Assembly (NCBI GenBank): GCA_024277025.1
Contig: JAJRWA010000048.1
Coordinates: forward strand, 29,653 to 93,652
DNA from: Candidatus Krumholzibacteriota bacterium
GTDB taxonomy: Bacteria > Krumholzibacteriota > Krumholzibacteriia > LZORAL124-64-63
Length of the DNA stretch: 64,000 nucleotides
Reading direction: 5' to 3'
Of the stretch, positions 719 to 41,468 are shown piece by piece (the stretch's first letter is position 1; each line of letters starts with the position of its first letter). A program made the position numbers and the translations under genes. Below the pieces are notes generated by a model, which saw only the letters and a list, made by a program, of their open reading frames with translations, did no database searches and had not been told where the DNA came from.

Positions 719-989
719 GGAAGCGTCCTTCCGGCGAAACTGGAGAAAATTTATTTTGCGCAGTGAAGCATTGCTGCGCTGAACTGTCAAATAGCTGCTC
801 GCCGTTTGCGCCGAATGAGCCACCCCATAGGTCAACATTTTCGGCGAGTAGTGTCTATTGCCAAATTTCAGGACAATTGTTGCCTAAATATATGAAAAAT
901 GGTATGGTGAGGCCCTCGCCCAATGCCGTTCAGCGGTCATTTTGCCGCGCTTGCACAGGGTGTGTTTTTACCTTTGGGGATTGGTAGGA

Positions 990-23759: not shown

Positions 23760-25565
23760 CTACTGCACCATCACCTGGAATTTCAGCGAAAAACTGCTGG
23801 GCCCGGAAATATCCCGGCCCAGAAAAATACCGCGGGGGCGGATGCGGATGTGCGTGACCGCTGGATCGTACCCCAGGGCGTCGGGCACCGGTCGGTAGCT
23901 GAAACTGGCGCCGCCGTCATTGGAGAAGGCGATCAGGCGCCGGCGCAGCCGCAGGCCACTGCTGACCGGGCCGTCGACGAACAGGACCGCCCCGGTCGTC
24001 GAGCCGGGGAATGTGTTCACGTACAGAGCCGTGTTGGCGGGCACCGGATTGATGACTTCGACCGTGTTGCGGTCGACCGTGCCGGCCCTGATGTTGCTGG
24101 TCGTCACCGTGCAAACCAGGGTCGCGCCGGGAATCGCCTTGGGGTTGGCCGCGCCGTTGATCGGGTCGGCCACCGTTTCGGTGAAACTGGCCGAGGTGAG
24201 TTCGGCGTCGGGCAGCACGACATTCAGGGCCATGGTGCCGGTATCATTGGCCGGATTGAAGTCGAAGGAACCGCCGCTGACGCTGACCAGCAGGTCGGGT
24301 GATCCGACGGCGCCGGGATCCGGCTGCACGGTGAATTCCAGGGGCAGGCTCTGGCCGGCCAGGACCGGCCCCGGTCGGCTCCAGGTGATGACAGGCAGGG
24401 CGCCGGTGTTCACGGTCCAGCCGCTGCCGGTCGTGCCGGTGTAGGCCAGGCCGGCGGGCAGGGTCACCGTCAGGCTGACCGGCAGGGGCTCGTCGCTGGG
24501 GCCGTTGTTGACCAGGGTCAGCGCGATCCGGCCGGGTTCCAATACGAACAGGGGATCGTCCGGGGCCGCGGTGAAGGCCAGGTCGGTCAGGGGCGTGTTG
24601 GTCACCGAAATGACTTCGGCCGACAGCAGCACCAGGTCCCGCCCCGAGCGGTAGACGGTCGTGGCCTGGATGTCGCCGGCGTTCAGGTAGGGCGTGACGT
24701 CGTAGATATCCAGATCCACGCCCCACTGGTCGCTCAGCCCGGCGGTGTTGACCGTGGAATTGAACTGGTTGTTGACCGGATTCAGGGGGTCCAGCAGGGC
24801 GTTGCCGTTGAAGGTCAGCCCCTCGGTATAGCCATTGAGGCTGCCGCTGTTCTCGGCGTCGCCTTCCCAGGTCAGGTGCCCCACCTTGCCGTTGATGTCG
24901 CTGGCGGCGATCTCGAAATCGGTGGCCGTCACGGCGATCTGGCCGCCGCGGTAGTACTGGAAGCCGTCGAAGATGTTGACCACGCGGTTCGATTCGTCCG
25001 GATGCTCGTAGACCACGATCAGCGACCAGCCGGCCAGCACCGCCTGCACGTTGCAGTGGGGCCAGGCCGTGTTGACGTCCAGATTGCCGAAAGTGTAGAG
25101 TCCGTTGCCCTTGGCTGCGACCAGGGCGGTCACGTCGGCCATGCCGCTGAAGAAATCGTAACGGCTGAAGCCCAGGCTGAAGACCTCGGTGAACTGGCGA
25201 TCGGCCGTGACCGCGGCCCCGTCGAGGGTCACGTCCCAGTCCGGCGTGCGTTGGGTCGACAGGAACTGATCGGACCAGGAGCCGGCCCAGTACAAGTAGG
25301 CGGCCCGGACCGTGGCGCCGGCCGGCAGGTCGGTCAAGGCCGCGGTGTCGTAGTTGTCCACGGCACAGGCGTCGGTCAGGTTCGAGCCGCGGCGCAGCGA
25401 GCCGGCGGTGCCGACGAAGTTCACGTGGCCGGCGTGGGTGGCGTGCAGGCTGATCGGCGTGCCGGCGCGGACGCTGCCGGGCAGCAGCAGCCAGCCGCTG
25501 AGCAGCAGCGGGATCAGGCCACGAAGGCGCCGGTAGTCCGGCTGATGTCTAGCGCAGCATCTCAT
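23760..25565 (-). CDS. secreted DUF11-domain surface protein with N-terminal MshQ/LamG-like beta-sandwich region
   Basis: Signal peptide. The N-terminal motif DACAVDNYDTAALTDLPAGATVRAAYLYWAGSW is reminiscent of MshQ/LamG-type proteins (from memory, low certainty). DUF11 repeat TLVNNGPSDEPLPVSLTVTLPAGLAY. The C-terminal about 60 aa (NPVPANTALYVN...AVTHIRIRP...FQVMVQ) are shared with three downstream paralogs. The gene overlaps the giant gene's stop by 17 nt. Confidence 0.5.
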   Translation of the reverse strand: MRCCARHQPDYRRLRGLIPLLLSGWLLLPGSVRAGTPISLHATHAGHVNFVGTAGSLRRGSNLTDACAVDNYDTAALTDLPAGATVRAAYLYWAGSWSDQFLSTQRTPDWDVTLDGAAVTADRQFTEVFSLGFSRYDFFSGMADVTALVAAKGNGLYTFGNLDVNTAWPHCNVQAVLAGWSLIVVYEHPDESNRVVNIFDGFQYYRGGQIAVTATDFEIAASDINGKVGHLTWEGDAENSGSLNGYTEGLTFNGNALLDPLNPVNNQFNSTVNTAGLSDQWGVDLDIYDVTPYLNAGDIQATTVYRSGRDLVLLSAEVISVTNTPLTDLAFTAAPDDPLFVLEPGRIALTLVNNGPSDEPLPVSLTVTLPAGLAYTGTTGSGWTVNTGALPVITWSRPGPVLAGQSLPLEFTVQPDPGAVGSPDLLVSVSGGSFDFNPANDTGTMALNVVLPDAELTSASFTETVADPINGAANPKAIPGATLVCTVTTSNIRAGTVDRNTVEVINPVPANTALYVNTFPGSTTGAVLFVDGPVSSGLRLRRRLIAFSNDGGASFSYRPVPDALGYDPAVTHIRIRPRGIFLGRDISGPSSFSLKFQVMVQ

Positions 25566-28500
25566 GGGTCGTTTCCTGGTTGAGCCGGACCCGGAACCGC
25601 AGATACGGTCCCTGGGCCGTGTAGTCCACCGCCGAGAAATCGCGGTCGCGATAACCGGTGAAGTTGTAGCCGAGACTGAGCCAGATATCCTCGAGCAGTT
25701 TGTAGCCGCCGCTCAGTCCGGCGCTGTAGTCGACGATGCCCGTGCGCCAGGCGTGCCGCCCGGCGGCGCGGGCGCCGATATCCCAGTGGCTGCCCAGGAA
25801 GTGACGCCACTCCAGGCCCAGCTGGTCGGTCGTGCTTTCGTAACGGCGGCCGGCGATCGTGTCGCGGCCATAGCGCACTCCGATCAGGGTGGAAAGCTGG
25901 TCCCGCTCGCCGAACATGCGCAGCAGGTTCAGGTTGTTCACCACGCGCCAGCTGGACAGGGCCGTCAGGTCGCCGGTCTGGTCCTCGGCCCGCCACGACA
26001 GGCGGTGCAGAATCGTCCATGGGTTATCATCCGGCCGCCACGACAGGCCGACGCTCACATCGGACAGATAGTGGTGCCCGGCCAGGCGGTAGTCCGTGCG
26101 CACCAGTCGCAAGCTGGCCAGCAGGCCGGTCTGCGTGCCTGGTTCGACGTGCACGCCGCCGCTCAGGCCCCATTTTTCGGACTCGGTGCTGGTGCGGTAT
26201 TCCAGGCGCTGGTCCACCAGCCACAGGCCGCCGCGGTAGGTGAAGCCGAAGGTGCCGGCGGTGAAGTCGCTGTCGATCGTCGGTGCGGCAACAGTCGAGT
26301 CTGACGGTGCGCCGCTGCTGCGGCCGTGGTCCAGTCCGCCGTCCAGATACCAGTGGTCGTTAAGGCGCAGGCTCTGCTTCAGGCCCAGATTGGCAAAGAC
26401 GCGGCGGTCGCTTTCGCGGCTGCGCCGCTCGGCCGAAGAAACCAGCCGCGCCCCGTGCCAGGGCACCGATTCGACGCCCAACCGGGTGCGGTGAGTGGCC
26501 GGCCCGCCGCCATCGACCAGTTCCTGGGCCAGAAACAGCTTCTGGTTGCGCACGACTTCGTACTCCAGGGCGGCTGTCGTGCGGGTCGGGAAGTCGGCAA
26601 TGTCATCCTGGCCGGCGATGGCCTGCTCGCGCCCCAGCCGGATGCGGCCGCGGCCCTCGAGCACTTTCACCGAGGCGTCGGCTGTCAATTGGCGGGCTTG
26701 CTGCAAGGTACCGTCGCTCTGCTCGTCGTTGGCTGCGCGCAGGCCCAGCCCGGCGGTGAACACACGGCTGTTGTGGTTCACCTTCATCTCGCCGAACTGG
26801 CGCTCGGCGGTGCTGACCAGATCGCGCTGGGCAAACACGGTGGCGTCCAGCCGCCAGGCTTCGTGGGGCTGCCAACGGGCGTCGGCGCCGTATTTGCGTG
26901 CACCCGACTCGCTGGCGTTCTGGTGGCCGAGGCCGAATCCGGCCTGTTGGTCGCGGTAGTACAGCCGGCCGATCAATGGCCCGGCGCGCTGGCTGAGTTC
27001 GCCGAACCAGGCATCCCGTCGGCCGGTGCCGCGAATATCGCTGCCGGCATACTCGGCCTTCAAGCGCAGCGACTGAGTCAAGTCCCAGCGGGTGTCCACA
27101 CCGGCCAGAACATCGGCCTGGCCACCCTGGGTGCCTTCCCGGATGCCGGTCACGCCGACCTCGACCGGGCCGGCGCCGGGTCGCCAGGAGCCGCGCCCGC
27201 CGACGGTGACTTCGGCGCTGCTGGCGGTCTCGGTCTCGTACTCGGCAATGATCCAGATCGGGTTGAAATTCTCGTCCTGGCTGGGGATCGGTTCCTTGAA
27301 GAACAGGGTGCCGTCCAGGTCGTCCAGGGTGTAGTCGACCGAGCGGGTCAGGTGCCGCTCGCTGATAATGATCTCGCTGCGATAGCGGTCCCGCACCTGC
27401 AGGATAATCTTCTCGGACTGGGGGATCAGCCGGCCCGCGGTCAGGCGGTACAGCCCAGAGGTGCCGTCGCCCCGGATCTCGTCCCGCCGGAAATTCTGCC
27501 GGTTCTCGCTGGCAAAGACGTCGAACCCCAGCTGCGCGCCTCGCCGACTGCTGCGCAGACCGGTCAGCGCCCGGTTGTAGCGCCCCAGTTCGGTCACCGT
27601 CAGGCCCGAGTTGAAATCGCCGTACAGGGCGTAGAACTGAGCCCGCTCGAGCCGGATGTACAGGTGGTCACTGGTCGGCGCGTCGTGCTTCTGGACCACC
27701 GCGTCGCCGTACACCGTGTAGTACGCGTCGGGGTCCACCACGCCGAACAGGCCCGGCACCGGCCGCCGTTCCGGGTCGGTGCTGTCGTAGGCCAAAGTCA
27801 GCAGCCACTTGCCTTTCAGGCGGCCCTTGGCAAAGAAGGCCAGGCGCCCGTCGGCATAGAAATCCTCGTTCCGGTCGGCAGCCGCCAGCTGTTCAAGATT
27901 GCCGCTGACCGTGTTGTAGCCCACGGTCCCGGACACGACCCCGGCCAGGATCCAGTCACGGGCCGCGGGCTGCAGCCAGGCCCGCAGTTCCTCTTCATGG
28001 TCGAGCAACCCCAGGTTGAGCACCGCTTCGCCCGAACTCGTGGTCGGAGCCAGGGTCAGCAGGGCCACGCCGTCGGGCCCGATGGTGTAGGTGGGGATCT
28101 TCTCCTGCAGCTCTGTGATGGTCTCGCGCTGGGCCTGGCCCTTCTCGCGCCAGGCTTCGTGCGGGGGCGCCACGGTGAACTTGCCGACCACCTCGCGGCG
28201 CGCCGGATAGCCCATCGAGTCGGTCAGGCGCACCGCAATGACGGGCTTCGTCTTGCCGTCGGCCACCAGCCGGGATCGTTCGGGCACCAGCTGGACAAAG
28301 ACCGGCGGACCGGAGTAGTGGATCCTGCGCTCCAGGTGGCGGACCAGCCTGCCGCGGGTATCGACGATGTCCACGGCCAGCAGGTTGTCGCCGTCGGTGA
28401 GGTCCAGTCCGGTCCAGGTGCTGACGGCGATCCGGCCGTCCGGCCCGACGATCCGGCCCGCGAAATTCAGGCGCCCGGCGGCCTTGCCGTTCAGGAACAG

Positions 28501-31389
28501 GCGCAGGCTGTCGCTGCCGGCGTGCTGCACCGCGAGCTTGATGGACGGCAGATGGGGCAGGTGTCCGTGCGGCGGCCAGAGGATGCGCTCACCGGCGCTG
28601 GCGCTGGCCAGCCAGGCCTCGTCATAGCTCGGCATCGTGGCCGCGGGCTGGACGGTGCCACCGGCATCCGGCCAGGCTTCGCCCGGCCGGAAACCCGTGA
28701 CCGGCCGCCGGGCCTGCTCGTGATCGTGCAACGCCTGGTCCGGCAGCCGGTGCACCACTTTCCGGGTCCACACCTGCAGGGTCACCCGCCGGTTGGCGGC
28801 CCGCCCCGCTGCGGTGCGGTTGTCGGCCACCGGTTCCCTGGCGCCCAGGCCGTACATGGCCAGCTGGGCCTCACTCAGGTGCAGCTGCCGGGAAATGTAG
28901 TTGCCGACCGCCTCGGCCCGGGCCAGCGAAAGAGCGTGGTTGTCCGTGTACACCGGATGGGCGCCGGGCCGGATGCGCTGGCTGTCCGTGTGCCCGATGA
29001 CCTTGACCGCCGTGATCTCCAGGTTCGCCAGACCGGCCAGCAGGGTGTCGATCTCCGCCAGATCCGCCGGTCCCAGCTCGGCACTCAAGCTGGCAAAGCG
29101 CGGCCGCAGGACCATTTCCGGCTGTTCCTGGCGCAATACCTCGGGCACCAGATTGATCGCGGTGCGCACGACTGCGGACCGCAGGTTGCGCTCGGTCGGG
29201 GTGTCGCACACCAGCAGGGTCTTTACCGCCAGGTCAGCGCGGTGCAGCGGTGGGACGACCGTGGCGCCATATTCGATCGTGAGAGCCTGATCGGCCGGCA
29301 AGTCACCCAGCCGGTAGACCAGGGTGCCGTCGCCGACCACCGGGTCCGGCACCGGCTGGCCGCCCAGACGCGAAGAACCGGGCGTGTAGGCAATCCCCGC
29401 GGGCAGGACCACCGTCAGGCGCAGGTTGCGCAGGGGCACCAGATCCGCGTCGATCCGGACCTGGCCCGTGACCGTCGCACCTTGCAGGGCGGTGTCCACG
29501 GCCAGCCCGAGCGTGCCGGCCACCGGCGGCACCCGCTGCAGCCGGAAATCACTGCGCCAGACCGTGCCGCCCTGCAGGTCGACCAGATGGGACCAAGGGT
29601 GGGCGCTGTACAGCGTGTCACCGCTGCAGTCGCCCGGCACGTAGTCGGGCGGCAGGCTTTCGCGGTCCAGTTGCACGACGTGGGCGCCGGGCGCGACGCC
29701 CGCGATATGGTAGCGCCCCTGGGCGTCCGTCACGGCGAAGGCGCCGCTCTCGAGATAAATGCGCACGCCGGCGATGCCGGTGCCCGAATCGGCTTCACAA
29801 TCGAAGCCCAGGACCCGACCGAGCAGGGTGTTGCTTGCGCCGAACAGATCGCGCCGCACGTTGACCAGCGCGCTGGCCTCGTTGGAGGTGACGGCGGCCC
29901 AGCGGGCGGTCGCCCGGTTGACCGCGTCGCCGGCCGGCGCGCCCGGCACCACGGCCGCCACGTAGCGAAAGGTCACGGTCGCGCCCGCGGCCAGCTCGGC
30001 GTGGGCGAAGGTGAGGGTGCGGCCATCGGGCGTGATGACGGGATCGCCCACCGGTTGGCTGTCCAGCAGCGTCGAACCGGCTTCGTAGCGAAAGCCGAGC
30101 GGCAGCTTGTCGGTCACCGTCAGGTTCGACGCGTCGTTGTCGGTCGTGTTCTGGACGCGGATTTCGTAGGCGAGAAAGTCGCCGATGGCCACACTGGCCC
30201 GCCCGGCCGTCTTGGTCACGAAGAGGTCGGTGTCGACCCGGTCGACCGGCAGGTCCAGCAGGAGCGGCTGGTCCGGCATGGCGAACGGTTCACCGCGGGA
30301 GCCGGGTGTCAGCAAAGCGTAGGGGCCGCCGGCGACCGACTGCAGCTGCGCGTCGGTCAGGCGCGACGGCGCGCGGTAGCCCGGCGGCACGTCCAGCTCA
30401 AGCCGGTACTGGCCCGCCTGTACGTGCGGGAAACGGAAACCGCCGGGGCCAAATTCATAGATTTGGCCGCCCGTGTCGCTGACCGGCCGGCCGGTCGTGA
30501 CCGTCGCCGGAAAGGCGGCGCTGCCGTCGACACCCAGCACGACGGCCGGCAGCCCGGTGCTGTTGTCGATGAGGCGAACCGTGACACCGTCGAGGGCCTC
30601 GCCGGTGCGGGAATCGAATACGCGGCCCACCGGATCGAAACGAGCGGTGGCCTGGGACTGGTCGGCCGGATCCCGGACGTCGGCGTAGACCAGACTGACA
30701 GTCTGGTCCTGGCCCACGCTCAGGCTGCCGTCCTTGGCCTGGGCCACAGCGCCGGTGGTCTGAATGAAGCCGAGAAATTCACCGGTGTCCGGCCCGGTCT
30801 CGTACAACCTGAGCAATTCACGATCGCCCAGGCTGTCGTTGCGAATGGTTAACAGGATCGTGTCCCGGCTCACGGCATCCCGGTTCTGATCCGCATCGAC
30901 CAGGTGCAGAAAAACGGGATCGCCCTGGGCGAAGAGGGTGGTCGAAACCAGCGGGACCGGCTGCGAGATATTGATCGGCGCCCCGCCGACGGGGACTGGC
31001 CCGGGCAGGGTCCGGAAAGGACCGCCGGCCTCGCCGCTGACGCTGTATTCGGTGCTGACCACGGGTACGGCGAGGGCTGTCCGCAGGCCGGGCTCGTAAC
31101 GCATGAAACCCGCTTCGCTGCCGGAACGCGCCGGCACGACGACCAGATTGACGGCATTGCTCAACCGGTTGAGCCCGCTGCGCGAGCCGGCACCGTAGGT
31201 GGCGCTGGCGATGTTCGTGATGATCGTGCCCGGCGGCTGCTGGGCGCTGGCCGGCGTGGGAGTGCCGGAGTGGAAAAAGATCAGCGGCACCGCAACCAGG
31301 AAACACCGCCGCCACACATGCGGAATCACGGCTCTGAAAAGAGCCGCGATTCCGCAGGAGGCAGTGCGTTTGGTGCCGTTGCGCAACAT
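25549..31389 (-). CDS. giant (1946 aa) outer-membrane-associated protein: DUF11 and carboxypeptidase-regulatory-like domains, internal OmpA-like peptidoglycan-binding domain, probable C-terminal beta-barrel
   Basis: The N-terminus GTIITNIASATYGAG resembles the small DUF11 paralogs. CarbopepD_reg-like folds at about aa 255-335 and 525-575 (GVRIYLESGAFAVTDAQGRYHIAGVAPG). DUF11 at about aa 390-500 (LAYEIRVQNTTDNDASNLTVTDKLPLGFRY). OmpA C-like domain at about aa 760-875, roughly nt 28764-29109 (VIGHTDSQ...NHALSLARAEAV...NRRVTLQV). A roughly 1050-aa C-terminal region of alternating amphipathic strands ends ...PYLRFRVRL. The antisense 1508-aa ORF has low complexity and was rejected. Confidence 0.6.
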   Translation of the reverse strand: MLRNGTKRTASCGIAALFRAVIPHVWRRCFLVAVPLIFFHSGTPTPASAQQPPGTIITNIASATYGAGSRSGLNRLSNAVNLVVVPARSGSEAGFMRYEPGLRTALAVPVVSTEYSVSGEAGGPFRTLPGPVPVGGAPINISQPVPLVSTTLFAQGDPVFLHLVDADQNRDAVSRDTILLTIRNDSLGDRELLRLYETGPDTGEFLGFIQTTGAVAQAKDGSLSVGQDQTVSLVYADVRDPADQSQATARFDPVGRVFDSRTGEALDGVTVRLIDNSTGLPAVVLGVDGSAAFPATVTTGRPVSDTGGQIYEFGPGGFRFPHVQAGQYRLELDVPPGYRAPSRLTDAQLQSVAGGPYALLTPGSRGEPFAMPDQPLLLDLPVDRVDTDLFVTKTAGRASVAIGDFLAYEIRVQNTTDNDASNLTVTDKLPLGFRYEAGSTLLDSQPVGDPVITPDGRTLTFAHAELAAGATVTFRYVAAVVPGAPAGDAVNRATARWAAVTSNEASALVNVRRDLFGASNTLLGRVLGFDCEADSGTGIAGVRIYLESGAFAVTDAQGRYHIAGVAPGAHVVQLDRESLPPDYVPGDCSGDTLYSAHPWSHLVDLQGGTVWRSDFRLQRVPPVAGTLGLAVDTALQGATVTGQVRIDADLVPLRNLRLTVVLPAGIAYTPGSSRLGGQPVPDPVVGDGTLVYRLGDLPADQALTIEYGATVVPPLHRADLAVKTLLVCDTPTERNLRSAVVRTAINLVPEVLRQEQPEMVLRPRFASLSAELGPADLAEIDTLLAGLANLEITAVKVIGHTDSQRIRPGAHPVYTDNHALSLARAEAVGNYISRQLHLSEAQLAMYGLGAREPVADNRTAAGRAANRRVTLQVWTRKVVHRLPDQALHDHEQARRPVTGFRPGEAWPDAGGTVQPAATMPSYDEAWLASASAGERILWPPHGHLPHLPSIKLAVQHAGSDSLRLFLNGKAAGRLNFAGRIVGPDGRIAVSTWTGLDLTDGDNLLAVDIVDTRGRLVRHLERRIHYSGPPVFVQLVPERSRLVADGKTKPVIAVRLTDSMGYPARREVVGKFTVAPPHEAWREKGQAQRETITELQEKIPTYTIGPDGVALLTLAPTTSSGEAVLNLGLLDHEEELRAWLQPAARDWILAGVVSGTVGYNTVSGNLEQLAAADRNEDFYADGRLAFFAKGRLKGKWLLTLAYDSTDPERRPVPGLFGVVDPDAYYTVYGDAVVQKHDAPTSDHLYIRLERAQFYALYGDFNSGLTVTELGRYNRALTGLRSSRRGAQLGFDVFASENRQNFRRDEIRGDGTSGLYRLTAGRLIPQSEKIILQVRDRYRSEIIISERHLTRSVDYTLDDLDGTLFFKEPIPSQDENFNPIWIIAEYETETASSAEVTVGGRGSWRPGAGPVEVGVTGIREGTQGGQADVLAGVDTRWDLTQSLRLKAEYAGSDIRGTGRRDAWFGELSQRAGPLIGRLYYRDQQAGFGLGHQNASESGARKYGADARWQPHEAWRLDATVFAQRDLVSTAERQFGEMKVNHNSRVFTAGLGLRAANDEQSDGTLQQARQLTADASVKVLEGRGRIRLGREQAIAGQDDIADFPTRTTAALEYEVVRNQKLFLAQELVDGGGPATHRTRLGVESVPWHGARLVSSAERRSRESDRRVFANLGLKQSLRLNDHWYLDGGLDHGRSSGAPSDSTVAAPTIDSDFTAGTFGFTYRGGLWLVDQRLEYRTSTESEKWGLSGGVHVEPGTQTGLLASLRLVRTDYRLAGHHYLSDVSVGLSWRPDDNPWTILHRLSWRAEDQTGDLTALSSWRVVNNLNLLRMFGERDQLSTLIGVRYGRDTIAGRRYESTTDQLGLEWRHFLGSHWDIGARAAGRHAWRTGIVDYSAGLSGGYKLLEDIWLSLGYNFTGYRDRDFSAVDYTAQGPYLRFRVRLNQETTHEMLR

Positions 31390-31397
31390 GTCCGGGG

Positions 31398-32456
31398 CTA
31401 CTGGATGATCACCTGGAATGTGCTCAGGGCAGCGCCTGCGGCGGCAATGCTCGGAAACAGGACCCGCATGTGGGTGACCGTCGGGTCGGTGCCGTCACCG
31501 CTGTCGACCGGCGTGTAGGCCCAGGTCGTTCCGCCGTCGTTGCTGTATTCCAGCGTGCCGGCCGGGGCCACCGAGTGGCTGCCGACGACGAAGCTGGTGT
31601 TGGCCGGCACCGGGTCGACGACCACGATATTGTCGGCGCTCGAGCCGCCGTTGTTGGTCAGATTGACCGTGTAGTTGACGTTGGCGCCGGGGATGTTCTT
31701 GGGCCGGGTCACGCCGTTGATCGGGTCGCTCATGACCGCGTGGGTCTTGACGACCTGCAGGTCGGCCGAGGCCACCTCGTAGGTCGAACGGCTGCTGTGG
31801 GCGCCGTCGTTGGCACCGTCGGCGCTGCCGGCGGCGTCGGCGAACACGATCTGGACCACCGACGGATCGTCGGCGCTGGCCGCGTCGTCCGCGGCGATGA
31901 CCGCGCCCTGGGCGGCGGGGGCGCCGCCATTGCTGGTGCGGGCCAGCAGGTCGTAGTTGGCCAGTTCGGCGTTGGCCGCGGTCAGGGGAATATCACTGAC
32001 GATGAACACGTTCTGCGTGGCGTCAATGGCCAGCTCGTCGATGAACGTCGCGTTGTCGGTGGCCGGCTCGTAGATGCCGTTGCCGTTGACGTCGACGAAG
32101 ACGTTCACGTTGGTCGCGTCGAAGTCGTCCCCGGCATCGGCCACGGCGGTCAGGGCGTAGTCCTGGACCGTGTTGCCGCTGTTGGTGACGGCATAGCTCA
32201 GCACGCGGGCGAGCATGCCGGGCACGACCACGATGTTGGCGGCGTCCAGGGTGGCGACCGAGACATCAACGCGGTTGTCGACCAGAAAGGTCGCCACGTT
32301 GCTGTTGATCGTGGCCTGGGGCAGTCCGCCGACCTGATAGTCGACCGTGGCGCTGTTGTTGACCGTGGTGCCCGAGGGCGTGCCGCCGGCCAGGGCGCTG
32401 CCGGCCAGGGCCAGCAGAAGTACGGCCGCAGCCAGAGTAGTGATCCTTCGTTTCAT
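31398..32456 (-). CDS. secreted DUF11 (conserved repeat domain)-family protein, paralog A
   Basis: Signal peptide MKRRITTLAAAVLLLALAGSALA. N-terminal motif GTPSGTTVNNSATVDY. A Ca-binding-like stretch DxNGNGIYEP. DUF11 repeat NYTVNLTNNGGSSADNIVVVDPVPANTSFVVGS. C-terminal TVTHMRVLF...FQVIIQ. Confidence 0.55.
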   Translation of the reverse strand: MKRRITTLAAAVLLLALAGSALAGGTPSGTTVNNSATVDYQVGGLPQATINSNVATFLVDNRVDVSVATLDAANIVVVPGMLARVLSYAVTNSGNTVQDYALTAVADAGDDFDATNVNVFVDVNGNGIYEPATDNATFIDELAIDATQNVFIVSDIPLTAANAELANYDLLARTSNGGAPAAQGAVIAADDAASADDPSVVQIVFADAAGSADGANDGAHSSRSTYEVASADLQVVKTHAVMSDPINGVTRPKNIPGANVNYTVNLTNNGGSSADNIVVVDPVPANTSFVVGSHSVAPAGTLEYSNDGGTTWAYTPVDSGDGTDPTVTHMRVLFPSIAAAGAALSTFQVIIQ

Positions 32457-32480
32457 CTGTTCTACCTCCTGTGGAAGTTG

Positions 32481-32969
32481 CTAGAGCAACCGGGTGGTGT
32501 AGCTCACCTGACCGGTTTCGCCCGGCGCCAGTGATCTGTGGAATTGCCAACGGATATGGGTGCAGTCCTGGGGCAGGGCCCGACGCGACTGACCTGCACT
32601 GTCAGTCACCGTCAGGTCGGACAACGGGCCGAACACATGGCCGCCGTCCACCGAGTAGAGGGTTTCCAGCCCGGCCGGATTGGCGGCCGCGCGACGGAAT
32701 TCCATGTGCTCGGGAATCGGATTCGTGATGAAAATATCGTCGGCCGGCTCGCTGCCCTGGTTGTCGTAGACGAGGGTGTAGATGACCTCGTCACCGGGCA
32801 CGACCGTTTCGGCCGGCACCCGCTGCACGGACCGCGTGCCGTCCGGTTGTTCCTGGACGACTTCGACCTCGGCCAGCGCGCGCAGAGCCACGCCGGCCAC
32901 GGCCGTTTGGGCCGCCGCCAGCGAAACGCCGAGCAGACTGATGAAAATCAGCGTCCGGCGCAGGTTCAT
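32481..32969 (-). CDS. small secreted DUF11-like protein, paralog B
   Basis: The ORF (TTG-initiated to 33008 in the track) was trimmed to ATG 32969, MNLRRTLIFISLLGVSLAAAQTA. DUF11-like VPGDEVIYTLVYDNQGSEPADDIFITNPIPEHMEF. C-terminal CTHIRWQF...VSYTTRLL. Confidence 0.45.
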   Translation of the reverse strand: MNLRRTLIFISLLGVSLAAAQTAVAGVALRALAEVEVVQEQPDGTRSVQRVPAETVVPGDEVIYTLVYDNQGSEPADDIFITNPIPEHMEFRRAAANPAGLETLYSVDGGHVFGPLSDLTVTDSAGQSRRALPQDCTHIRWQFHRSLAPGETGQVSYTTRLL

Positions 32970-33000
32970 AGGGATAGTTGTCACTTGCTTACCTCCTGGG

Positions 33001-33996
33001 TTATTCAAGGGTCACCTGGAAAGAGATCCGTTGTGTCGGCGTGTCGGCTGTCATGTCTCCGAGGGCAATGGTGACCGCGCCCTCCAATTGGTCGGCCACG
33101 TCGCCGGCATCGCTGTCGGCGGCGTCGCTCAGGGGAGTGTCGTTGAGCAGAAGCGTGCCCGGGCGATAGACCGTGCCCGGGGGAATGGGGTCGGTCACGC
33201 GCACGTCGTGGGCGATGCCGCTGCCGCTGACCGTGACGGTGATCGTGTAGGTGATGAGGCCGGTCTCGTCGACCTCGTTGCCGGGCAGGGTGCGGCCCGC
33301 GGTGTCGGTCACCACGGCGGTCTTGAAGAGGTTGACCTGGACTGCGGCCACTTCCAGGGTGCCGACGGCGTCGGCGAACCCGCCGGCCAGCCCGATGATC
33401 GCGTCGGTGCCACCGTCGCCCTGGCCGTAGACCACGGTGCCCGGCACGCCGTAGCCCTCCGCGGAACCGACGGCCAGTTTCAGGTCGCCGCGATCGCCGG
33501 TGGCCAGAGCCGGCGGCACGATGCCCACCAGGAAGACCGTCAGCGGCTGGTCCGCGGCCAGTTCGGGATCGTTCACACCCTCGATGTAGATTTCATCCTG
33601 CAGGGGGTCGTAGTAGCCGTTGCCGTTGGTGTCCAGATGGATCGCGGGGTTCAGCGGGTCGAAGTCGTCGCCGGCCAGGGCGTTGATGGCCGTCAGCAGA
33701 AACGTCTCCTGGCCATTGCCCGTGTTCTGCAGGCGAAAGGTCAGCGCCGCGCCGGTGTCGCCAGCGTACACCGGCACGGCGGCCGCATCCTGCCAGGCCA
33801 GCGTGAAGTCCAGGACTTCATTGACCGGCAGGGAGAGCAAGTTGCTCGCCGTGGTCATATTCTGGCCGGCCTGCGTGTACGAGACCATCGCCTGGCTTTG
33901 GATCAGCGTACCGGCGGGCGTGCCGACTGCTGCAGCCAGGGATGTTTGCAGGCACGCCATGAGGGTCAAGGCCAACAGCCTTGCCGGGCGTCTCAT
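33001..33996 (-). CDS. secreted DUF11-family protein, paralog C
   Basis: Signal peptide MRRPARLLALTLMACLQTSLAAAVG. N-terminal GTPAGTLIQSQAMVSY, DDFDPLNPAIHLDTNGNGYYDP, and DUF11 repeat GLITYTITVTVSGSGIAHDVRVTDPIPPGTVYRPG. Clearly paralogous to 31398..32456. Ends ISFQVTLE. Confidence 0.55.
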   Translation of the reverse strand: MRRPARLLALTLMACLQTSLAAAVGTPAGTLIQSQAMVSYTQAGQNMTTASNLLSLPVNEVLDFTLAWQDAAAVPVYAGDTGAALTFRLQNTGNGQETFLLTAINALAGDDFDPLNPAIHLDTNGNGYYDPLQDEIYIEGVNDPELAADQPLTVFLVGIVPPALATGDRGDLKLAVGSAEGYGVPGTVVYGQGDGGTDAIIGLAGGFADAVGTLEVAAVQVNLFKTAVVTDTAGRTLPGNEVDETGLITYTITVTVSGSGIAHDVRVTDPIPPGTVYRPGTLLLNDTPLSDAADSDAGDVADQLEGAVTIALGDMTADTPTQRISFQVTLE

Positions 33997-34370
33997 GCGC
34001 GATCACTTCCCCCTCCGGACCGGGCCCCTGGGGGGCCGTCCGGATATTATCGAATCATGCCAACGGACGCCGTGGGCGACACGGCATCTGTGGGGGGCAT
34101 CGGAAGCGGGGCCTGCGGGATTGAGTTTATTTCCGGCTAATGAAGGCTGTAGCGGCGGTAATGGGCGATTGGGGGCGATCGGGGCTTATTGGGTGTGATT
34201 GTGCTTCAATGGGGAGCAGCCCGCCTTCGGATCCGTCGGCTCTGCGGGGGCTGGCGCGCAGGGCATCCGGCAATTGTTCCCAGACCGGCGGTTGATCATG
34301 TATCATGAGGCGGCAGGAGATCTTCTCTTTCAACCCTCGAACCGGCCACAACCAGAACAGCGAGGATCAC

Positions 34371-34859
34371 GTGCCATTCAATCATTTTGACCGGGAGGGC
34401 CACGCCCACATGGTCGATGTCTCGGGCAAGGAGACAACCCTGCGCGAAGCCGTCGTCGAGGCCCGGGTCACCGTGGGGCCAAAGTTGCTGCAGCGCATTC
34501 TGGACCGTGGCCTGACCAAGGGTGACGTGCTCGGCGTGGCGCGCCTGGCCGGGATCGCCGCCACCAAGAAGACCCCCGACCTGATTCCCCTGGCCCACCC
34601 GCTGGCTGTGCACCACGCGGCGATCGCGTTCGAGCCCGACCCGGCAGCCGGTGTGCTGAAGATCCGCTGCACGGTCCGGGCCGAGGAAAAAACCGGGGTC
34701 GAGATGGAAGCGATGACCGGCGCCACGGTGGCCGGCCTGACCGTCTACGACATGTGCAAGGGCGAGCGGCGGGATATCGAGCTGGGGCCGGTGCGCCTGC
34801 TGCGCAAATCCGGTGGCCGCAGCGGACTCTACCAATACGATGGCGACGGGGAGGGTTGA
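34371..34859 (+). CDS. moaC: cyclic pyranopterin monophosphate synthase MoaC
   Basis: GHAHMVDVSGKETTLREAVVEA...GDVLGVARLAGIAATKKTPDLIPLAHP...KTGVEMEAMTGATVAGLTVYDMCK aligns by eye with E. coli MoaC. The start was set at the GTG at 34371 (GAGGA upstream); the maximal ORF begins at ATG 34305. Confidence 0.8.
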   Translation: MPFNHFDREGHAHMVDVSGKETTLREAVVEARVTVGPKLLQRILDRGLTKGDVLGVARLAGIAATKKTPDLIPLAHPLAVHHAAIAFEPDPAAGVLKIRCTVRAEEKTGVEMEAMTGATVAGLTVYDMCKGERRDIELGPVRLLRKSGGRSGLYQYDGDGEG

Positions 34860-35367
34860 TTTGGCCGGCGCACTGAACCTGAAGACCGGAGTCCTGGTCC
34901 TGAGTGACAAGGGTTCCCGCGGCGAGCGCGAGGACGCCAGTGGCCCGGCCCTGCTGGACTTCCTGGCCGACCAGGGGGTGCCGGACGCCGAACTGGTCAT
35001 CCTGCCGGATGAGCGCCCGCTTATCGCCGAGTCCCTGGCGCGGTGGGCGGACCAGGAGGGTTTCGACCTGATCCTCACCTGCGGCGGCACCGGGGTTTCG
35101 CCCCGGGATGTCACCCCGGAAGCGACGCGCGACGTCATCACCACCGAGCTGCCGGGCTTCGGCGAACAGATGCGGGCGGTCAGCCTCACCAAGTCGCCCC
35201 ACGCCATCATCAGCCGGGCGACCGCCGGCATTCGCCGGCACACCCTGATCATCAACCTGCCGGGCAGTCCCCGGGCCGCGGTCGAAAATCTGGCCGCGGT
35301 CTGGCCGGCGGTGCCGCATGCGATAGCCAAGTTGCAGGGGGACGACGCGGACTGCGCCCAGGGTTAG
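34840..35367 (+). CDS. moaB: molybdopterin adenylyltransferase-like MoaB/MogA family protein
   Basis: LTCGGTGVSPRDVTPEA and GVLVLSDKGSRGEREDASG are typical of MogA/MoaB. The ATG at 34840 overlaps the moaC 3' end by 20 nt; alternative starts are GTG 34813 and TTG 34861. Confidence 0.75.
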   Translation: MATGRVDLAGALNLKTGVLVLSDKGSRGEREDASGPALLDFLADQGVPDAELVILPDERPLIAESLARWADQEGFDLILTCGGTGVSPRDVTPEATRDVITTELPGFGEQMRAVSLTKSPHAIISRATAGIRRHTLIINLPGSPRAAVENLAAVWPAVPHAIAKLQGDDADCAQG

Positions 35368-37184
35368 ACTTCAGCGGGTTGTTTGGTCCACCACAGGATC
35401 GTGTCGCGCAGTTGTTTGGCCTTCAGCGGCTTGGTCAGGAAGTCGTCCATGTTTGCGGCCAGGCACTTCTCCTTGTAGCCCGCCAGGGCGTGGGCCGTCA
35501 GGGCCACGATGGGAATGCGCCGGCCGGCATCCTCGAGCGCCCGAATCCTCGCGGTCGCGGCGAAACCGTCCATGACCGGCATCTGCACGTCCATCAGGAT
35601 CAGATCAAAACTGTTTTTCTCCCACAGGGCAACGCCCTCTTCGCCGTTCTCGGCCCATTTGATGTCGGCGCCGGCCTTCTGCAGGATGTGGGTGGCCAAC
35701 TTGGCGTTGACCAGGTTGTCTTCCACCAGCAGGATCCGGATTCCGCTCAGTTTCCGGTCATCGCCGTCGGCTGCCGGCGCGACGTCGGGCGTGGCGGCGA
35801 CCGGTGCCTGGCAGGAGGCCAGCGGCAAGGTGAAGGAGAACGTGCTGCCCTCGCCCTCGGTGCTCGCCAGTTTGATCTGGCCGTCCATCATGTTGATGAT
35901 GCGCGCGGAAATGGTCAGGCCCAGACCCGTGCCGCCGAACTGCCGTGTCGTGGTGCCGTCGGCCTGGCGGAAGGCTTCGAAAATGTGGGCCTGGTTGGCG
36001 GCCGGGATGCCGATGCCCGTGTCCTGCACGGCGAACCGGATCCGCGGCGAGTCGTTGCCCCGGTCCACGACGCTCACACTGAGCGTGACAGTGCCGTGTT
36101 CGGTGAATTTCAGGGCGTTGCCGACCAGGTTGGTCAGGACCTGCCAGAGGCGCAGGCTGTCCCCGAGCACCGCTTCGGGCAGGCCTGCCGCCAGCCTGAC
36201 TTCGAGTTTGTTGTGGCGGTCATCCGCCGCCGTCTGCAGCGGCTTGACGACGTTTTCCACCAGGTCGAGCAGGCGGAACGGCGCGGGATCCAGCTCGAAC
36301 TTGCCCGATTCGATCTTGGAGAAATCGAGAATCTAATTGATGACCCGCAGCAGGGTTTCACCCGAAATGCGGATGTCGTTCATGTACTCCCGCTGCGCCG
36401 GGTCCAGTTCGGTGTCGAGCATCAGGTTGGTCAGGCCGATGACCCCGTTCATCGGTGTGCGGATCTCATGGCTCATGTTGGCCAGGAACTCGCTCTTGGC
36501 GCGATTGGCCGCGACCACTTCGTCACGGGCGGCCTCCAGGTCATCCGCCCGCTGCCGCAAGTCTTCCTCGCGTTCGAGTCTCGTCCAGAACTCGCGATGG
36601 AAGTAGGCGCCCAGGGTGTGGACCTGGACCGTGTAGAACATCAGAAGCCCGGCCAGGGAGATCGCCCTGGTTTCGCCCGAGGCCAACAGCGTGATGATGT
36701 GCGGCAGCATGATCATGCCGACGAAGACGCGGAAGATCTTCATGCGGGGCGACAGGCTGCTGGTGGCGCTGGCCGCGATTCCGATACTGGTCATCACCAG
36801 GATGTAGTAGGACCAGCCCATACCGAAGTGGATCAGGACTCCGGCATTGCCCAGCCCCCAGACCAGGGCCGGAAACAGGGTGCCCAGGAAGAAGCGGTTC
36901 AGCCAGCGCCCGGGGTTCTTGTCGTAGCACGAGGCGAAGGATCGGGCCAACCGAATGCGCAAGAGCCCCGAGACCAGGTACAGGGCCGTCACACCCAACG
37001 ATGGCAACAGGGCTTCCGACTTGAGATCGGTCATCAGCATGACGATGATTGTCAGGGGCACATAGCTGAGGGCGACGCGCAGCGAACGGCGCGCCAGTTC
37101 CTGGTCGGCAGGACGGTTCAGCCGCAGGTTGTGGGCGGAATCACCTTGCTCGGTGGTCTGCAGGATTTGGGAATGTTCCATCAC
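35364..37184 (-). pseudogene. hybrid sensor histidine kinase (membrane sensor-HisKA-HATPase-REC) interrupted by an in-frame TAG; possible pseudogene or sequencing error
   Basis: The upstream half (36333..37184) has TM helices and an H-box, [18 protein letters not shown]...LLRVIN, then TAG (plus-strand cta at 36333-36335). Translation continues in frame as ILDFSKIESGKFEL. The second half (35364..36260 in the track) encodes HATPase_c (VGNALKFT...GGTGLGLTIS) and a receiver domain (ILLVEDNLVNAKL...DLILMDVQMPVMDG...TKPL). The stop replaces the conserved Asp of the NDILDFSKIE motif. Confidence 0.55.
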
Positions 37185-38654: not shown

Positions 38655-41468
38655 TCACTTGGTCAGGACAACTCTTTGTGTGGCCTGGTCGCCGCGGCCG
38701 GCGACCAGCCGCACGAGATAGACCCCGCTGGCGGCCGTGCGGCCCCGGTCATCGCGCCCGTCCCACTGCAGTTGTCCGCGCGTGTCAGTGGTCGGTCCGC
38801 GGTAGAGCTGCCGGATCCGCCGCCCCCGCAGATCGTACACCGTCACCGCCAGAGGCCCGGGCCGCGCGATCGCATAGGAGATATTGACGACCGGATTGAA
38901 GGGATTCGGCCAGGCCGCCAACCGGGTCGTCACTGCGGTCGGCGGGCCGTCGGGTACCGGCGCCGGCGCGAGGCCGCGACCGAGCGTGATGCCGTCGATG
39001 AAGAAGCCGGCGCCGCTCACTCCGCTGTCCGATCCGAACGCCAGGCGGAAGCGGAACGAGCCCCCGGTCAGCCCGCTGATGTCAAAGACAGTGCCCGTCC
39101 AATGGTCGGAAGTCCCGGACCAGCCGGCCTGCTGGCCGAGGCCGCCCAGGAACAGATCACTGTAACCCTCGACGGGTGCCAGCAGGGTGGACGTGCTGTC
39201 GGTGCCGACAGTCAGATTCACGCCGTCGAAGTTGGCTTCCGTGGCGCTGAAGTAGTGGAAACTCAGGTAGTACGGCCCCGCGGACACGCCGCTCAGATCG
39301 TACAGGGGGCTGCTCAGGGTGTCGGCCTGGTCGTCGGCATAGCCCAGACCATCCATCCCGATCCCCCAGCACTGGCTGCCGGTGAAGGCGTCGGTCACGC
39401 CGGCCGGCGGGACCCCGTGGGTCCACAGACCCTGGCCCGCGGCGAAACCGCCGTCATCGGCGCCGAAATCCTCGCCGACCGGAGCGAGAACCGGGCTGAG
39501 AGTGACTGTGCCTGTGGCCCCGCCGGTCGAGAAGTCGAGCACCCGGGCGCCGAAGCCCGGCACGCCGTGGACCAGCACCTGGTCGCTCAGGCCCACCGGC
39601 ACCTGGGGCAGGACAAAAGAGCCGTCGGCGCCGCTGATCGCCGCCGGCACCGGCACGGTCAGCGGCTCGATGCGCGCGCCGGACAAAGGCAGCCCGTTGC
39701 CGTAGACCACGCCCGCGATATCCACCCGCGCCACCGGGGTCAGGACCATATCCGCGACAACCGGGCTGCCCAGGGCAATGACCGCCGCCGTGCTGTCCGG
39801 TTCGTAGCCAAAGAGGGAAAACCCGATTTCCGTGGGGCCGACCAGCAGGGGCAGACGCCAACTGCCGGCAGCATCGGTCAGGGTGGTTGCGCCGCCGCCG
39901 CTGACGGCCACCAGCACCCCGGCCACGGGCAGGCCCGTGGCCTGGTCCGTCACCACCCCCGACACCTCGCCAATGCCGGTGTCGGCCAGGGCGTAGGCGG
40001 CGACCAGATCGGGCCGGGTGCCGATCAGCTGCGGTCCGTTGACCGGGGTGCCGGTCTGGCGCAACAGATCCCGGGCCAGGCGGGCGTCCAGACTGAAGCC
40101 GTGCCGGGCGCGGACCATGCCCGCCAGGCTGACCACCGCGCCGGTCACCACGGGGGTGGCGCTGCTGGTTCCGTTGAACTGGGCGGTGTACCACTGCTGC
40201 TCGGGAAACTCCGGCGAACCCTGCAGGTCGCCATAGGCCAGAGTGGTCACATCGAAGCCCCAGCCGTTGAGGTCCACCCGCTGGCCGTGGTTGGTGAAGT
40301 AGGCCGGATCGAGCGTGACCCCATCGGTGGCCCCGACCAGGATGGCGCCGCTGTGGCGGACGGCCGGATCGAACAGCCCCTGATAGATGGCGGCGTCCAG
40401 ATCGACCGCGCCGTTGCCGGCCGCTTCGAGCACCATGATCCCCTGCCGGGTGACCGCCTCGATGGCCGCGAAGTTGTCCTGCCAGAATTCCATGGGCACG
40501 TAGCCCTCCTGGCCGACTCCGGTGGCCTCGGGCCCGGGCGCGTGCAGCTCGATGACAATGACATCACCGGGTCCGAGCAGGGCGCCTGCGGCCAGGATCG
40601 CTTCGCTGGTGGACTGGTCACCGATGGACGAACTGCCCACGGCACAGGCCGGGGCGATGCCGGTCACGCCCAACCCGTTGTCCTGGCCCCGGATCACGCC
40701 GAGCACCGCCGTGCCATGCCAGCGCCAACTGCCGCTGTCGATGTGGGTGCCGAGATCAGCCAGGGGCGCCGGCAGGTCCTCGTGGCTCCACAGCCAGGCA
40801 CCTTCGACATCGATCACCTGCACGCCGGCCCCCAGGGCGCCGGCCTGGCCGCGCATGCTCAAGGCGCCGATGCCCGCGGGCGCATCGGCCAGATACCCCT
40901 GCAGGTGCTCAAACGAGGCCGAAGCGGTATCGGCGGCTGCCGAGGGGAACCCGGGACCGGTTCGGCCGAAGTCCAGCACCGCCGGTGTGGCCACCGGCTC
41001 CAACCAGGCCAAATCGATGGCGGGGTCGTCCTGCAGTCGGGCGACCAGCTTGTTCAGTACCTGACGGTCGCGTGTTCCGGCCTCGAACTGGGCGTAGCGG
41101 GCCAGCGGCAAGTAGCGGGCGCGGTCCTCGGCTTGGGCCAGGCCGCGCGCGGCGGTCGGCATTCTGGCGGTCAGCCGGGCGCCCGGGACCAGATTCGTGA
41201 CCAGGTTCAGCACCCGCCGGCCATTGCCGGCAGCCTTGGCCGGGGCGGTAACTGACACGCCATCCGGCCCCATGTGCAGCCCCGCCGTGGGGGCAAAACG
41301 GATGACCAGCCGGCCGCTGGGTGCGGTCGTCTGCAAACGTGGTGAACCACCGGGACTTGCCGGATCCGGCGCCGCAACCAGCCTGTTGGGGCCGCCAAAA
41401 ACGCTCGATATCACAAAAACGGCCAAAAAATAACGAAAAACGCCGGTCCAGGTGATTTTCCTGTTCAT
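38655..41468 (-). CDS. secreted S8-family subtilisin-like serine peptidase with Cpd-reg-like domains and C-terminal T9SS sorting domain
   Basis: Catalytic triad contexts DSGSWRWHGTAVLGV and GTSSATPVVTGA. Repeated beta-sandwich GVVTDQATGLPVAGVLVAV. C-terminal WPNPFNPVVNISYAI...VTVYDLRGRRI...SGVYLVRLV. Confidence 0.8.
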   Translation of the reverse strand: MNRKITWTGVFRYFLAVFVISSVFGGPNRLVAAPDPASPGGSPRLQTTAPSGRLVIRFAPTAGLHMGPDGVSVTAPAKAAGNGRRVLNLVTNLVPGARLTARMPTAARGLAQAEDRARYLPLARYAQFEAGTRDRQVLNKLVARLQDDPAIDLAWLEPVATPAVLDFGRTGPGFPSAAADTASASFEHLQGYLADAPAGIGALSMRGQAGALGAGVQVIDVEGAWLWSHEDLPAPLADLGTHIDSGSWRWHGTAVLGVIRGQDNGLGVTGIAPACAVGSSSIGDQSTSEAILAAGALLGPGDVIVIELHAPGPEATGVGQEGYVPMEFWQDNFAAIEAVTRQGIMVLEAAGNGAVDLDAAIYQGLFDPAVRHSGAILVGATDGVTLDPAYFTNHGQRVDLNGWGFDVTTLAYGDLQGSPEFPEQQWYTAQFNGTSSATPVVTGAVVSLAGMVRARHGFSLDARLARDLLRQTGTPVNGPQLIGTRPDLVAAYALADTGIGEVSGVVTDQATGLPVAGVLVAVSGGGATTLTDAAGSWRLPLLVGPTEIGFSLFGYEPDSTAAVIALGSPVVADMVLTPVARVDIAGVVYGNGLPLSGARIEPLTVPVPAAISGADGSFVLPQVPVGLSDQVLVHGVPGFGARVLDFSTGGATGTVTLSPVLAPVGEDFGADDGGFAAGQGLWTHGVPPAGVTDAFTGSQCWGIGMDGLGYADDQADTLSSPLYDLSGVSAGPYYLSFHYFSATEANFDGVNLTVGTDSTSTLLAPVEGYSDLFLGGLGQQAGWSGTSDHWTGTVFDISGLTGGSFRFRLAFGSDSGVSGAGFFIDGITLGRGLAPAPVPDGPPTAVTTRLAAWPNPFNPVVNISYAIARPGPLAVTVYDLRGRRIRQLYRGPTTDTRGQLQWDGRDDRGRTAASGVYLVRLVAGRGDQATQRVVLTK

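Follow-up and report, generated by a model that had tools for sequence, protein, structure and literature searches.

A candidate donor-strand fibre system of split CLIPPER-domain proteins and a predicted giant outer-membrane barrel protein

Among the described systems that lie closest to the one reported here, archaeal threads are donor-strand filaments with intermolecular isopeptide bonds and provide a precedent for such a fibre (PMC9715654). The DUF11 family of Pfam (PF01345), which now carries the name CLIPPER, includes a solved domain in which an isopeptide bond is formed via a Lys on the first strand, a catalytic Asp, and an Asn on the penultimate strand (PMC12617251). Here we analysed a 64,000-nucleotide stretch (hereafter the window) of contig JAJRWA010000048.1 from a Candidatus Krumholzibacteriota bacterium. 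It encodes an operon of five genes, termed A to E, four of which code for proteins ending in a CLIPPER domain that lacks its last two strands. The remaining gene, D, codes for a protein of 1946 residues with a pilin-like N-terminal part and a predicted outer-membrane barrel. We propose, with a probability of about 55%, that D is the outer-membrane component of the system, serving as pore and anchor of a donor-strand-linked and possibly covalently locked fibre. Full-text literature searches found no description of the D family or of the operon.

An operon of truncated CLIPPER-domain proteins

The operon A-B-C-D-E spans positions 23760-33996 of the minus strand, with D as the fourth gene and E following it in the window:

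33001-33996 (-): gene A, pilin-like protein of 331 residues, with a signal peptide, the donor motif GTPAGTLIQSQAMVSY...SN, a middle immunoglobulin (Ig)-like domain, and a C-terminal CLIPPER domain without its last two strands (sequence, hhalign)
32481-32969 (-): gene B, secreted protein of 162 residues (counted from Met) consisting of one truncated CLIPPER domain, without the donor motif (sequence, hhalign)
31398-32456 (-): gene C, second pilin-like protein of 352 residues, a paralogue of A with a C-terminal truncated CLIPPER domain (sequence, hhalign)
25549-31389 (-): gene D, predicted outer-membrane protein of 1946 residues (open reading frame, hidden Markov model (HMM) domains, homologues)
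23760-25565 (-): gene E, tip-type protein of 601 residues, with a signal peptide, a DUF3344 domain, a complete DUF11 domain, and a C-terminal truncated CLIPPER domain, without the donor motif (HMM, sequence)

The gaps between A and B, B and C, and C and D are 31, 24, and 8 nucleotides, respectively, and the start of E overlaps the end of D by 17 nucleotides. Of 51 related loci whose upstream DNA is long enough, 47 have A, B, and C in that order ahead of D; A is upstream of B likewise in 47, and B and C are each present in 50. Independent gene calls in four related loci agree with the A-B-C-D order, and many related loci hold a large E-like gene either downstream of D or upstream of A. The operon genes beside D match DUF11 and DUF3344 only, and no PapD-like chaperone (Pili_assembly_N/C) was found among the neighbours in other loci. 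We regard a functional link of D to A, B, and C as highly probable.

Profile alignment with hhalign revealed that the C-terminal domains of A, B, and C align to the complete internal CLIPPER domain of D at a probability of 96%-98% (E = 1e-9 to 1e-12), and that all three stop at column 101 of the 136 template columns. The absent portion corresponds to the last two strands of the domain, for which the D family has the consensus G.AVN.A.A..G..SN.A.A.V.V. E likewise ends in a CLIPPER domain without these two strands, and across 84 loci a truncated CLIPPER domain occupies the extreme C-terminus of about 204 non-D proteins. At the other end of the chain, A, C, and D open with a common motif, (A/P)xGTxIxNxAxVxY..GG....SN.....V, a few residues past the predicted signal-peptidase site. 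Every significant match of an HMM of this motif (156/156) directly follows a signal peptide, and none is internal. By its sequence pattern, the motif resembles the two missing CLIPPER strands, including the isopeptide Asn. Taking the truncated domain as a putative acceptor and the motif as a putative donor, the tip-type proteins and B carry just an acceptor, A and C carry one of each, and D carries just a donor.

This class pattern bears on how the truncated domains might be completed. The roughly 27 tip-type proteins, of 486-1525 residues and with variable N-terminal domains, have an acceptor and no motif, and therefore their truncated domain cannot be completed in cis. D carries the motif, yet both its own DUF11-like domains are complete. 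Furthermore, no linker separates the motif from the domain that follows, just as consecutive repeats abut in a tandem array, which makes the completion of the same chain's distal domain geometrically awkward. Adding the motif to the A acceptor extended the hhalign match from columns 19-101 to columns 19-134 and raised the score from 68.7 to 75.5, compared with 68-71 for the controls. From these sequence features, we lean slightly towards strand complementation in trans between subunits.

The residues of the isopeptide triad, whose equivalents in the solved CLIPPER domain are K715, D748, and N806 (PMC12617251), were traced through the families. Of 96 A/C acceptors, 84 have both Lys and Asp, as do most tip acceptors; the donor Asn is found in 34 of the 40 A donors, in all 40 C donors, and in 49 of the 50 D donors. 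The catalytic Asp position of B is Asn in nearly the whole family. In the window, the C acceptor keeps Lys and Asp; the A acceptor has both as well, and the Asn of the A donor is replaced by Ser; the E acceptor has Ser/Glu and Asn in place of Lys and Asp. The paired loss of the A donor Asn and the E acceptor Lys/Asp is restricted to the window and its closest relative, locus L058, in which the donor residue is Cys, and thus hints, from a single lineage, that A pairs with E. For a covalent lock of the joints by a Lys-Asn isopeptide bond, which these residues would permit, we put the odds somewhat below even.

Domains and family of the D protein

The D protein can be divided into seven parts, here given from the N-terminus to the C-terminus:

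31243-31389 (-): predicted signal peptide, residues 1-49, ending ..PASA and followed by QQ (read from the sequence; AlphaFold2 helix at residues 14-42 with a low predicted local distance difference test score, pLDDT)
31120-31242 (-): N-terminal donor motif, residues 50-90, PPGTIITNIASATY...SNAVNLV, common to A and C (motif comparison)
29110-31119 (-): pilin-like stalk of Ig-type domains, residues 91-760 (Pfam, NCBIfam, AlphaFold2, Foldseek)
28765-29097 (-): OmpA-like peptidoglycan-binding domain, residues 765-875, an accessory insert in the family (Pfam, NCBIfam, alignment)
27967-28632 (-): two Ig-like beta-sandwich domains, residues 920-1141, presumably periplasmic (AlphaFold2, pLDDT 78-91)
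27262-27966 (-): conserved module, residues 1142-1376, with RDWILxG..., DGRxAFFAKG, DEIRGDGTSGLY, and NFNP (alignment, AlphaFold2)
25585-27261 (-): predicted barrel, residues 1377-1935, of 32 consecutive long strands, the last being GPYLRFRVRL, followed by an 11-residue tail (AlphaFold2, Foldseek)

The GC content of the window is 60%-71%, and an open reading frame of 1508 residues runs antisense to D at 26326-30852 (+). Lacking homologue support, it is the kind of artefact expected at about 70% GC. That D itself is such an artefact is ruled out by more than 1000 homologues spanning its whole C-terminal region; as only the minus-strand frame has homologues, D is a real gene. The first-pass annotation, made from the letters alone, had assigned DUF11, CarboxypepD_reg, and OmpA domains to this frame, and all three lie above the Pfam gathering cutoffs: DUF11/CLIPPER at residues 388-497 (51.4 bits against 24.6), CarboxypepD_reg at 535-576 (35.3 against 32.3), and OmpA at 765-867 (46.6 against 27.2). 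The mid-protein position that it gave for the OmpA domain, about residues 760-875, is thereby supported by an HMM.

Within the stalk, a complete CLIPPER domain (388-510) is accompanied by two CarboxypepD_reg/CnaB-like domains and by another complete domain of the DUF11-like kind (625-760). Lys, Asp, and Asn of the triad are all present in the internal CLIPPER domain (LFVTKT...VTDKLP...AVNRATA). An AlphaFold2 model of residues 1-880, built with 40 homologues (pLDDT 87), consists of the signal-peptide helix, then a string of beta domains, and then the alpha/beta OmpA fold at 774-879; the donor-motif residues have a pLDDT of 73-82, compared with more than 90 in most of the later residue blocks up to about residue 510. 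Foldseek placed BcpA at the top of the matches to this model (E = 4e-14), followed by SpaD, EbpB, SpaA, LrpA, and RrgB, with E-values up to 1e-9; the adhesins SdrD and UafA were also matched. In the model, the N-terminal 700 or so residues look like a pilin of the Gram-positive type. They start with the motif of the neighbouring pilins, and D is probably part of the fibre as well as the pore of the fibre.

The OmpA module was also picked up by the TssL, YiaD, YfiB, and MotB-type models of NCBIfam, and can be aligned with solved peptidoglycan-binding domains, namely PA0833-PD, YfiB, YiaD, and A. baumannii OmpA (3td3). It retains the GHTD, LSxxRA (LSLARA in D), and NRRV motifs of PF00691. The Asp of GHTD and the Arg of LSxxRA presumably have a role in diaminopimelic acid (DAP) binding, as in A. 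baumannii OmpA. Where the module is present, we propose that it ties the machine to peptidoglycan. It is found in 47 of the 70 relatives with a complete N-terminal region and is missing from the other 23, and is by this sequence comparison an accessory insert in the D family.

Residues 880-1946 gave no Pfam match and no sequence match in the PDB, and when the C-terminal region and the module at 1141-1380 were used as queries against the PDB, both by sequence and by profile, only chance matches came back, the OmpA tail excepted. This part was modelled by AlphaFold2 from an alignment with 35 homologues (pLDDT 71.9, predicted template modelling score 0.59). The model bore out in part the earlier claim of a C-terminal barrel of roughly 1000 residues: about 560-800 residues are compatible with a barrel, and the rest is taken up by periplasmic-type domains; behind OmpA, the two Ig-like domains come first, the conserved module next, and the predicted barrel last. 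In the mid-region, relatives of D have weak Pfam matches to Invasin_D3 and Big_1. Conservation in the family peaks at residues 1120-1400, with a mean column identity of 68% across phyla; within the module at 1142-1376, for which no relative is detectable in Pfam or the PDB, the first 100 residues have a pLDDT of 25-39, residues 1145-1240 being modelled at very low confidence. The conserved, beta-rich short strands of residues 1245-1376 lie in the model between these poorly modelled strands and the run of 32 long ones. According to the model, the module may form the first strands of the barrel and/or an inserted plug-like domain or gate.

The last 560 or so residues were predicted as 32 long strands with a mean length of 12.8 residues, joined at most junctions by turns of 1-6 residues and at a few by turns of 9-17, and with 62% polar residues on one face. 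Searched against the PDB, this barrel model matched solely very large outer-membrane barrels at a probability of 1.0, including Deinococcus SlpA, LptD, the translocon SprA of the type IX secretion system (T9SS), MtrB, and TonB-dependent transporters. Some relatives of D have weak Pfam matches to the outer-membrane barrel families OMP_b-brl, DUF2490, and YfaZ. The C-terminal consensus of the family, GPFxxFRxKF plus a tail of about 10 residues (GPYLRFRVRL-NQETTHEMLR in D), resembles a beta-signal, though one that is not at the terminus. Given the model, the C-terminal region is likely an outer-membrane barrel, presumably closed, with at least 32 predicted strands.

The C-terminal region of D has more than 1000 full-length homologues at 37%-69% identity, and 2,520 representatives at E <= 1e-30 were found among 1.84 billion clusters at 50% identity. 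The order of domains, described before as unusual, is not so within the family, being the rule in about 2,500 cluster representatives: in the best matches listed, the barrel is at the C-terminus of proteins of about 1000 to 3000 residues. Relatives of D occur in at least 585 species-level genomes, spread over many diderm phyla, and the best 80 matching loci come nearly all from metagenome-assembled genomes. The carriers include members of Desulfobacterota, Nitrospirota, Woeseiaceae, Steroidobacteraceae, Burkholderiales, Myxococcota, Lentisphaeria, Zetaproteobacteria, and Geobacter, as well as relatives of Latescibacterota and Zixibacteria, and the proteins are annotated merely as 'hypothetical', 'OmpA family' or 'DUF11 domain-containing'. 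In locus L024, a Desulfuromonadales contig, two copies of the barrel region (1-1869 and 10745-13165) lie about 9 kb apart; thus, some genomes hold more than one such system.

A putative assembly model and its alternatives

In our putative model, split-CLIPPER subunits would be joined by donor-strand complementation, with a polarity as in chaperone-usher pili. The acceptor would be the C-terminal CLIPPER domain without its last two strands, and the donor an N-terminal segment of about 35 residues that would fill the preceding subunit. Initially, the fibre would start from an acceptor-only cap, for which both E-type tip adhesins and the minimal B protein are candidates, and would then be extended by A and C with their donor and acceptor. 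Finally, the donor strand of D would fill the last acceptor, giving the end of the fibre and its tie to the barrel protein; as D is a donor only, its pilin-like stalk would end the fibre and fix it to the barrel. The barrel of at least 32 strands would be the channel that takes the Ig-like subunits to the surface, with the two Ig-like domains and the conserved module before it on the periplasmic side, and the OmpA insert, where present, would bind the wall. If the stalk of D is inside the cell, it would tether the base of the fibre in the periplasm. At joints where Lys, Asp, and Asn are all present, the link would probably be locked by a spontaneous isopeptide bond, as in SpyTag/SpyCatcher, and B may serve as a non-covalent cap or initiator, or as a chaperone-like placeholder for donor strands.

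The first-pass annotation had suggested that the protein acts both as an export pore and as a cell-wall anchor. A barrel with a peptidoglycan anchor fits the HMM and fold evidence, and a putative role in export or assembly fits the conserved operon of secreted pilin-like proteins. As to the anchor, the absence of OmpA from 23 of 70 full-length relatives means that wall anchoring is not the core function. In its fullest form, the model describes a fibre of CLIPPER-array slices cut two strands off-register and locked by isopeptide bonds as a natural SpyTag/SpyCatcher; a barrel with 32 or more strands would extrude this fibre and end up covalently joined to it, with the N-terminus of D as the last donor strand and the optional OmpA module as wall fixation. 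We regard this complete scenario as possible rather than probable.

Several results weigh against the model. The likeness of the motif to the missing strands is at the level of pattern: the motif HMM found no significant match in complete CLIPPER domains, with 7 of its 13 weak matches at their ends, and aligning the motif with the domain by hhalign gave E = 0.016 on the wrong strand of the pair. Adding the motif to the acceptor of family C gave no gain in hhalign score, and adding it to acceptors made the Pfam alignment reach profile positions 97-112 of 114, also with no gain in score. AlphaFold2 models the motif of D as strands (pLDDT 73-82), and cis packing is possible. Since the A donor has Ser and the E acceptor lacks Lys and Asp, some links in this operon cannot be covalent. 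No chaperone homologue is present. If the stalk of D is outside, the linker of about 25 residues before the OmpA domain would have to run back through the barrel. As for the barrel, Foldseek superimposes the model on known barrels with a template modelling (TM) score of only about 0.2, its closure and strand number are predicted, and the lipid-facing side of its strands is mildly hydrophobic (mean Kyte-Doolittle value 0.72).

D could instead be mainly a structural tether or giant porin in the manner of OmpA, OmpM, or Deinococcus SlpA, with the neighbouring DUF11 proteins attached as a coat or S-layer-like and not polymerising through it. The SlpA barrels are indeed the best Foldseek matches, the OmpA domain is intact, and there are weak NCBIfam matches to the Kustd1514 S-layer glycoprotein. 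Nevertheless, barrel, N-terminal stalk, and A-B-C genes are all retained in the 23 relatives without OmpA; D lacks an SLH domain; and a tether leaves the shared N-terminal motif and the uniformly truncated C-terminal domains unexplained. We therefore consider a mere tether unlikely.

It is similarly improbable that D is a self-exporting fibrillar adhesin resembling an autotransporter, in which the stalk would be a passenger through its own barrel, with A, B, C, and E as secreted or accessory proteins in their own right. An N-terminal stalk followed by a C-terminal barrel follows the logic of type Va secretion, the stalk is like those of adhesins and pilins and has a complete isopeptide triad, and a CLIPPER-stalk adhesin with an OmpA-like anchor has been described (PMC12617251). 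Against this, about 380 residues of OmpA, Ig-like domains, and conserved module separate the stalk from the barrel, D matches no autotransporter HMM, and neither the strict A-B-C synteny nor the donor/acceptor pattern is explained. Self-export can be combined with the donor-strand fibre, D being in that case its exported base subunit.

Least likely of all is a circular permutation in which each chain's C-terminal CLIPPER domain is completed by its own N-terminal motif, with A and C as monomeric secreted proteins and the motif of D simply belonging to its first domain or serving as an export signal: AlphaFold2 puts the D motif in strands with moderate confidence, monomer predictions of pilins commonly self-complement (PMC9715654), and the statistical tie between motif and missing strands is weak, but the tip-type proteins and B have the truncated domain and no motif, D has the motif and no truncated domain, and the motif enters the middle domain without a linker in the style of a tandem array.

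Genomic surroundings and comparison with known systems

Downstream of the operon, an M13 peptidase was considered as a member of the system and rejected, as it has no counterpart in 84 related loci. Upstream of A, the open reading frame at 34296-35330 (-) is not a genuine gene, and the place is instead occupied by moaC and moaB/mog in divergent orientation. Beyond these lies a hybrid sensor kinase, seemingly in two open reading frames about 70 nucleotides apart, which could reflect a frameshift, a sequencing error, or two genes. The window further holds several large secreted or surface proteins, three of which end in a FlgD_ig/T9SS type A sorting domain. Two of them exceed the TIGR04183 cutoff of 23 bits, scoring 26.7 and 30.0, and the third falls short at 20 bits; from these sorting domains, the host probably has a type IX secretion system. 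The closest homologue carries a gammaproteobacterial name, but the host may not belong to that class. The neighbouring features are:

35364-37184 (-): split hybrid sensor kinase, with HisKA at 36333-37184 and HATPase_c plus receiver at 35364-36260
12542-14830 (-), 38655-41468 (-), and 942-2753 (+): secreted proteins with the sorting domain, the trio being a LVIVD/beta-propeller protein, an S8 subtilase with CarboxypepD_reg, and an FG-GAP/ASPIC protein
9448-11076 (-): open reading frame of 542 residues, matching the thiol-activated (cholesterol-dependent) cytolysin family (PF01289, E = 1.9e-33), unusual in a diderm environmental bacterium
7505-9004 (-): protein of 499 residues with an fn3 domain followed by RCC1 repeats, likely a secreted beta-propeller

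A, B, C, and E gave no match to TIGR04183, though two of these other secreted proteins of the window have one above the cutoff, and membership of the operon in the T9SS as cargo or translocon was rejected accordingly. Type Va autotransporter membership was rejected as well, given the lack of a PF03797 match and the 380 or so residues of folded domains between stalk and barrel. So was an SLH-type tether of the SlpA/OmpM class, as D has no SLH match and its model has beta domains and OmpA instead of a coiled coil.

The closest parallel in overall logic is the chaperone-usher system (FimD/PapC, FimC/PapD). Under the proposed model, both have an operon of small secreted Ig-like subunits and one large outer-membrane barrel protein; subunits with an incomplete Ig-type domain and an N-terminal donor segment; a tip with an acceptor only and an extra N-terminal domain (FimH); and a donor-bearing terminator that acts as an anchor (PapH, FimI). 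In contrast, the present system has no PapD HMM match and no strand-donating chaperone, its predicted barrel has at least 32 strands rather than 24, its subunits have a CLIPPER/CnaA fold with two strands missing and not one, its terminator is fused to the barrel, and its residues permit a covalent lock. D and 36 family members gave no match to Usher (PF00577), PapC_N, or PapC_C at E <= 1, and the family profile of D matched no usher in the PDB; membership among ushers, chaperones, or chaperone-usher pilins fails every homology test.

With sortase pili (BcpA, SpaA, RrgB, EbpB), the system shares the structure of the N-terminal 700 residues of D and the CnaA/CnaB-type domains with Lys-Asn isopeptide triads. 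It differs in its diderm host and in the proposed linkage, which would be strand complementation and not transpeptidation. The last 60 residues of A to E hold no LPXTG-like motif, save a chance IAAAG in C, and no sortase domain is encoded in the operon, so that membership among sortase-dependent pilins was rejected. The CLIPPER/DUF11 fibrillar adhesins (A. silvestris B9T28_05395, PDB 9IFR; PMC12617251) belong to the same domain family, have the triad seen in the CLIPPER domain of D, and can have an OmpA-like anchor in one chain. Unlike those single long chains of complete tandem domains, the array here appears cut off-register into separate proteins, and the anchor has a giant barrel of its own.

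Head-to-tail donor-strand complementation plus intermolecular isopeptide bonds, proposed here from sequence, would liken the fibre to the archaeal threads (Saci_0406; PMC9715654), and a split isopeptide domain able to reassemble and ligate spontaneously would liken it to SpyTag/SpyCatcher. There is no sequence relationship to either; the threads have no outer-membrane machinery, and SpyTag/SpyCatcher is an engineered pair derived from a CnaB domain. In structure, residues 1377-1935 of D match best to very large single-chain barrels (SlpA with 30 strands, LptD with 26, SprA with 36), and SlpA shares a wall-binding module N-terminal to the barrel. However, the TM score is about 0.2, there is no sequence similarity, and D lacks an SLH domain, an LptD jellyroll, and T9SS partners in its operon.

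If the model is correct, many environmental diderms build adhesive fibres without parts homologous to those of chaperone-usher, type IV, type V, curli, or sortase pili, and this would be the first covalently cross-linked donor-strand pilus in bacteria, with a barrel among the largest single-chain outer-membrane barrels known. It would also explain what is done by thousands of genes that are now listed as 'OmpA family protein' or 'DUF11 domain-containing protein', and could offer natural orthogonal 'tag/catcher' pairs for protein engineering. Compared with the described systems, we take the one encoded by this operon as a variant of donor-strand pili with an outer-membrane platform, with a substantial chance that it merits a pilus class of its own.

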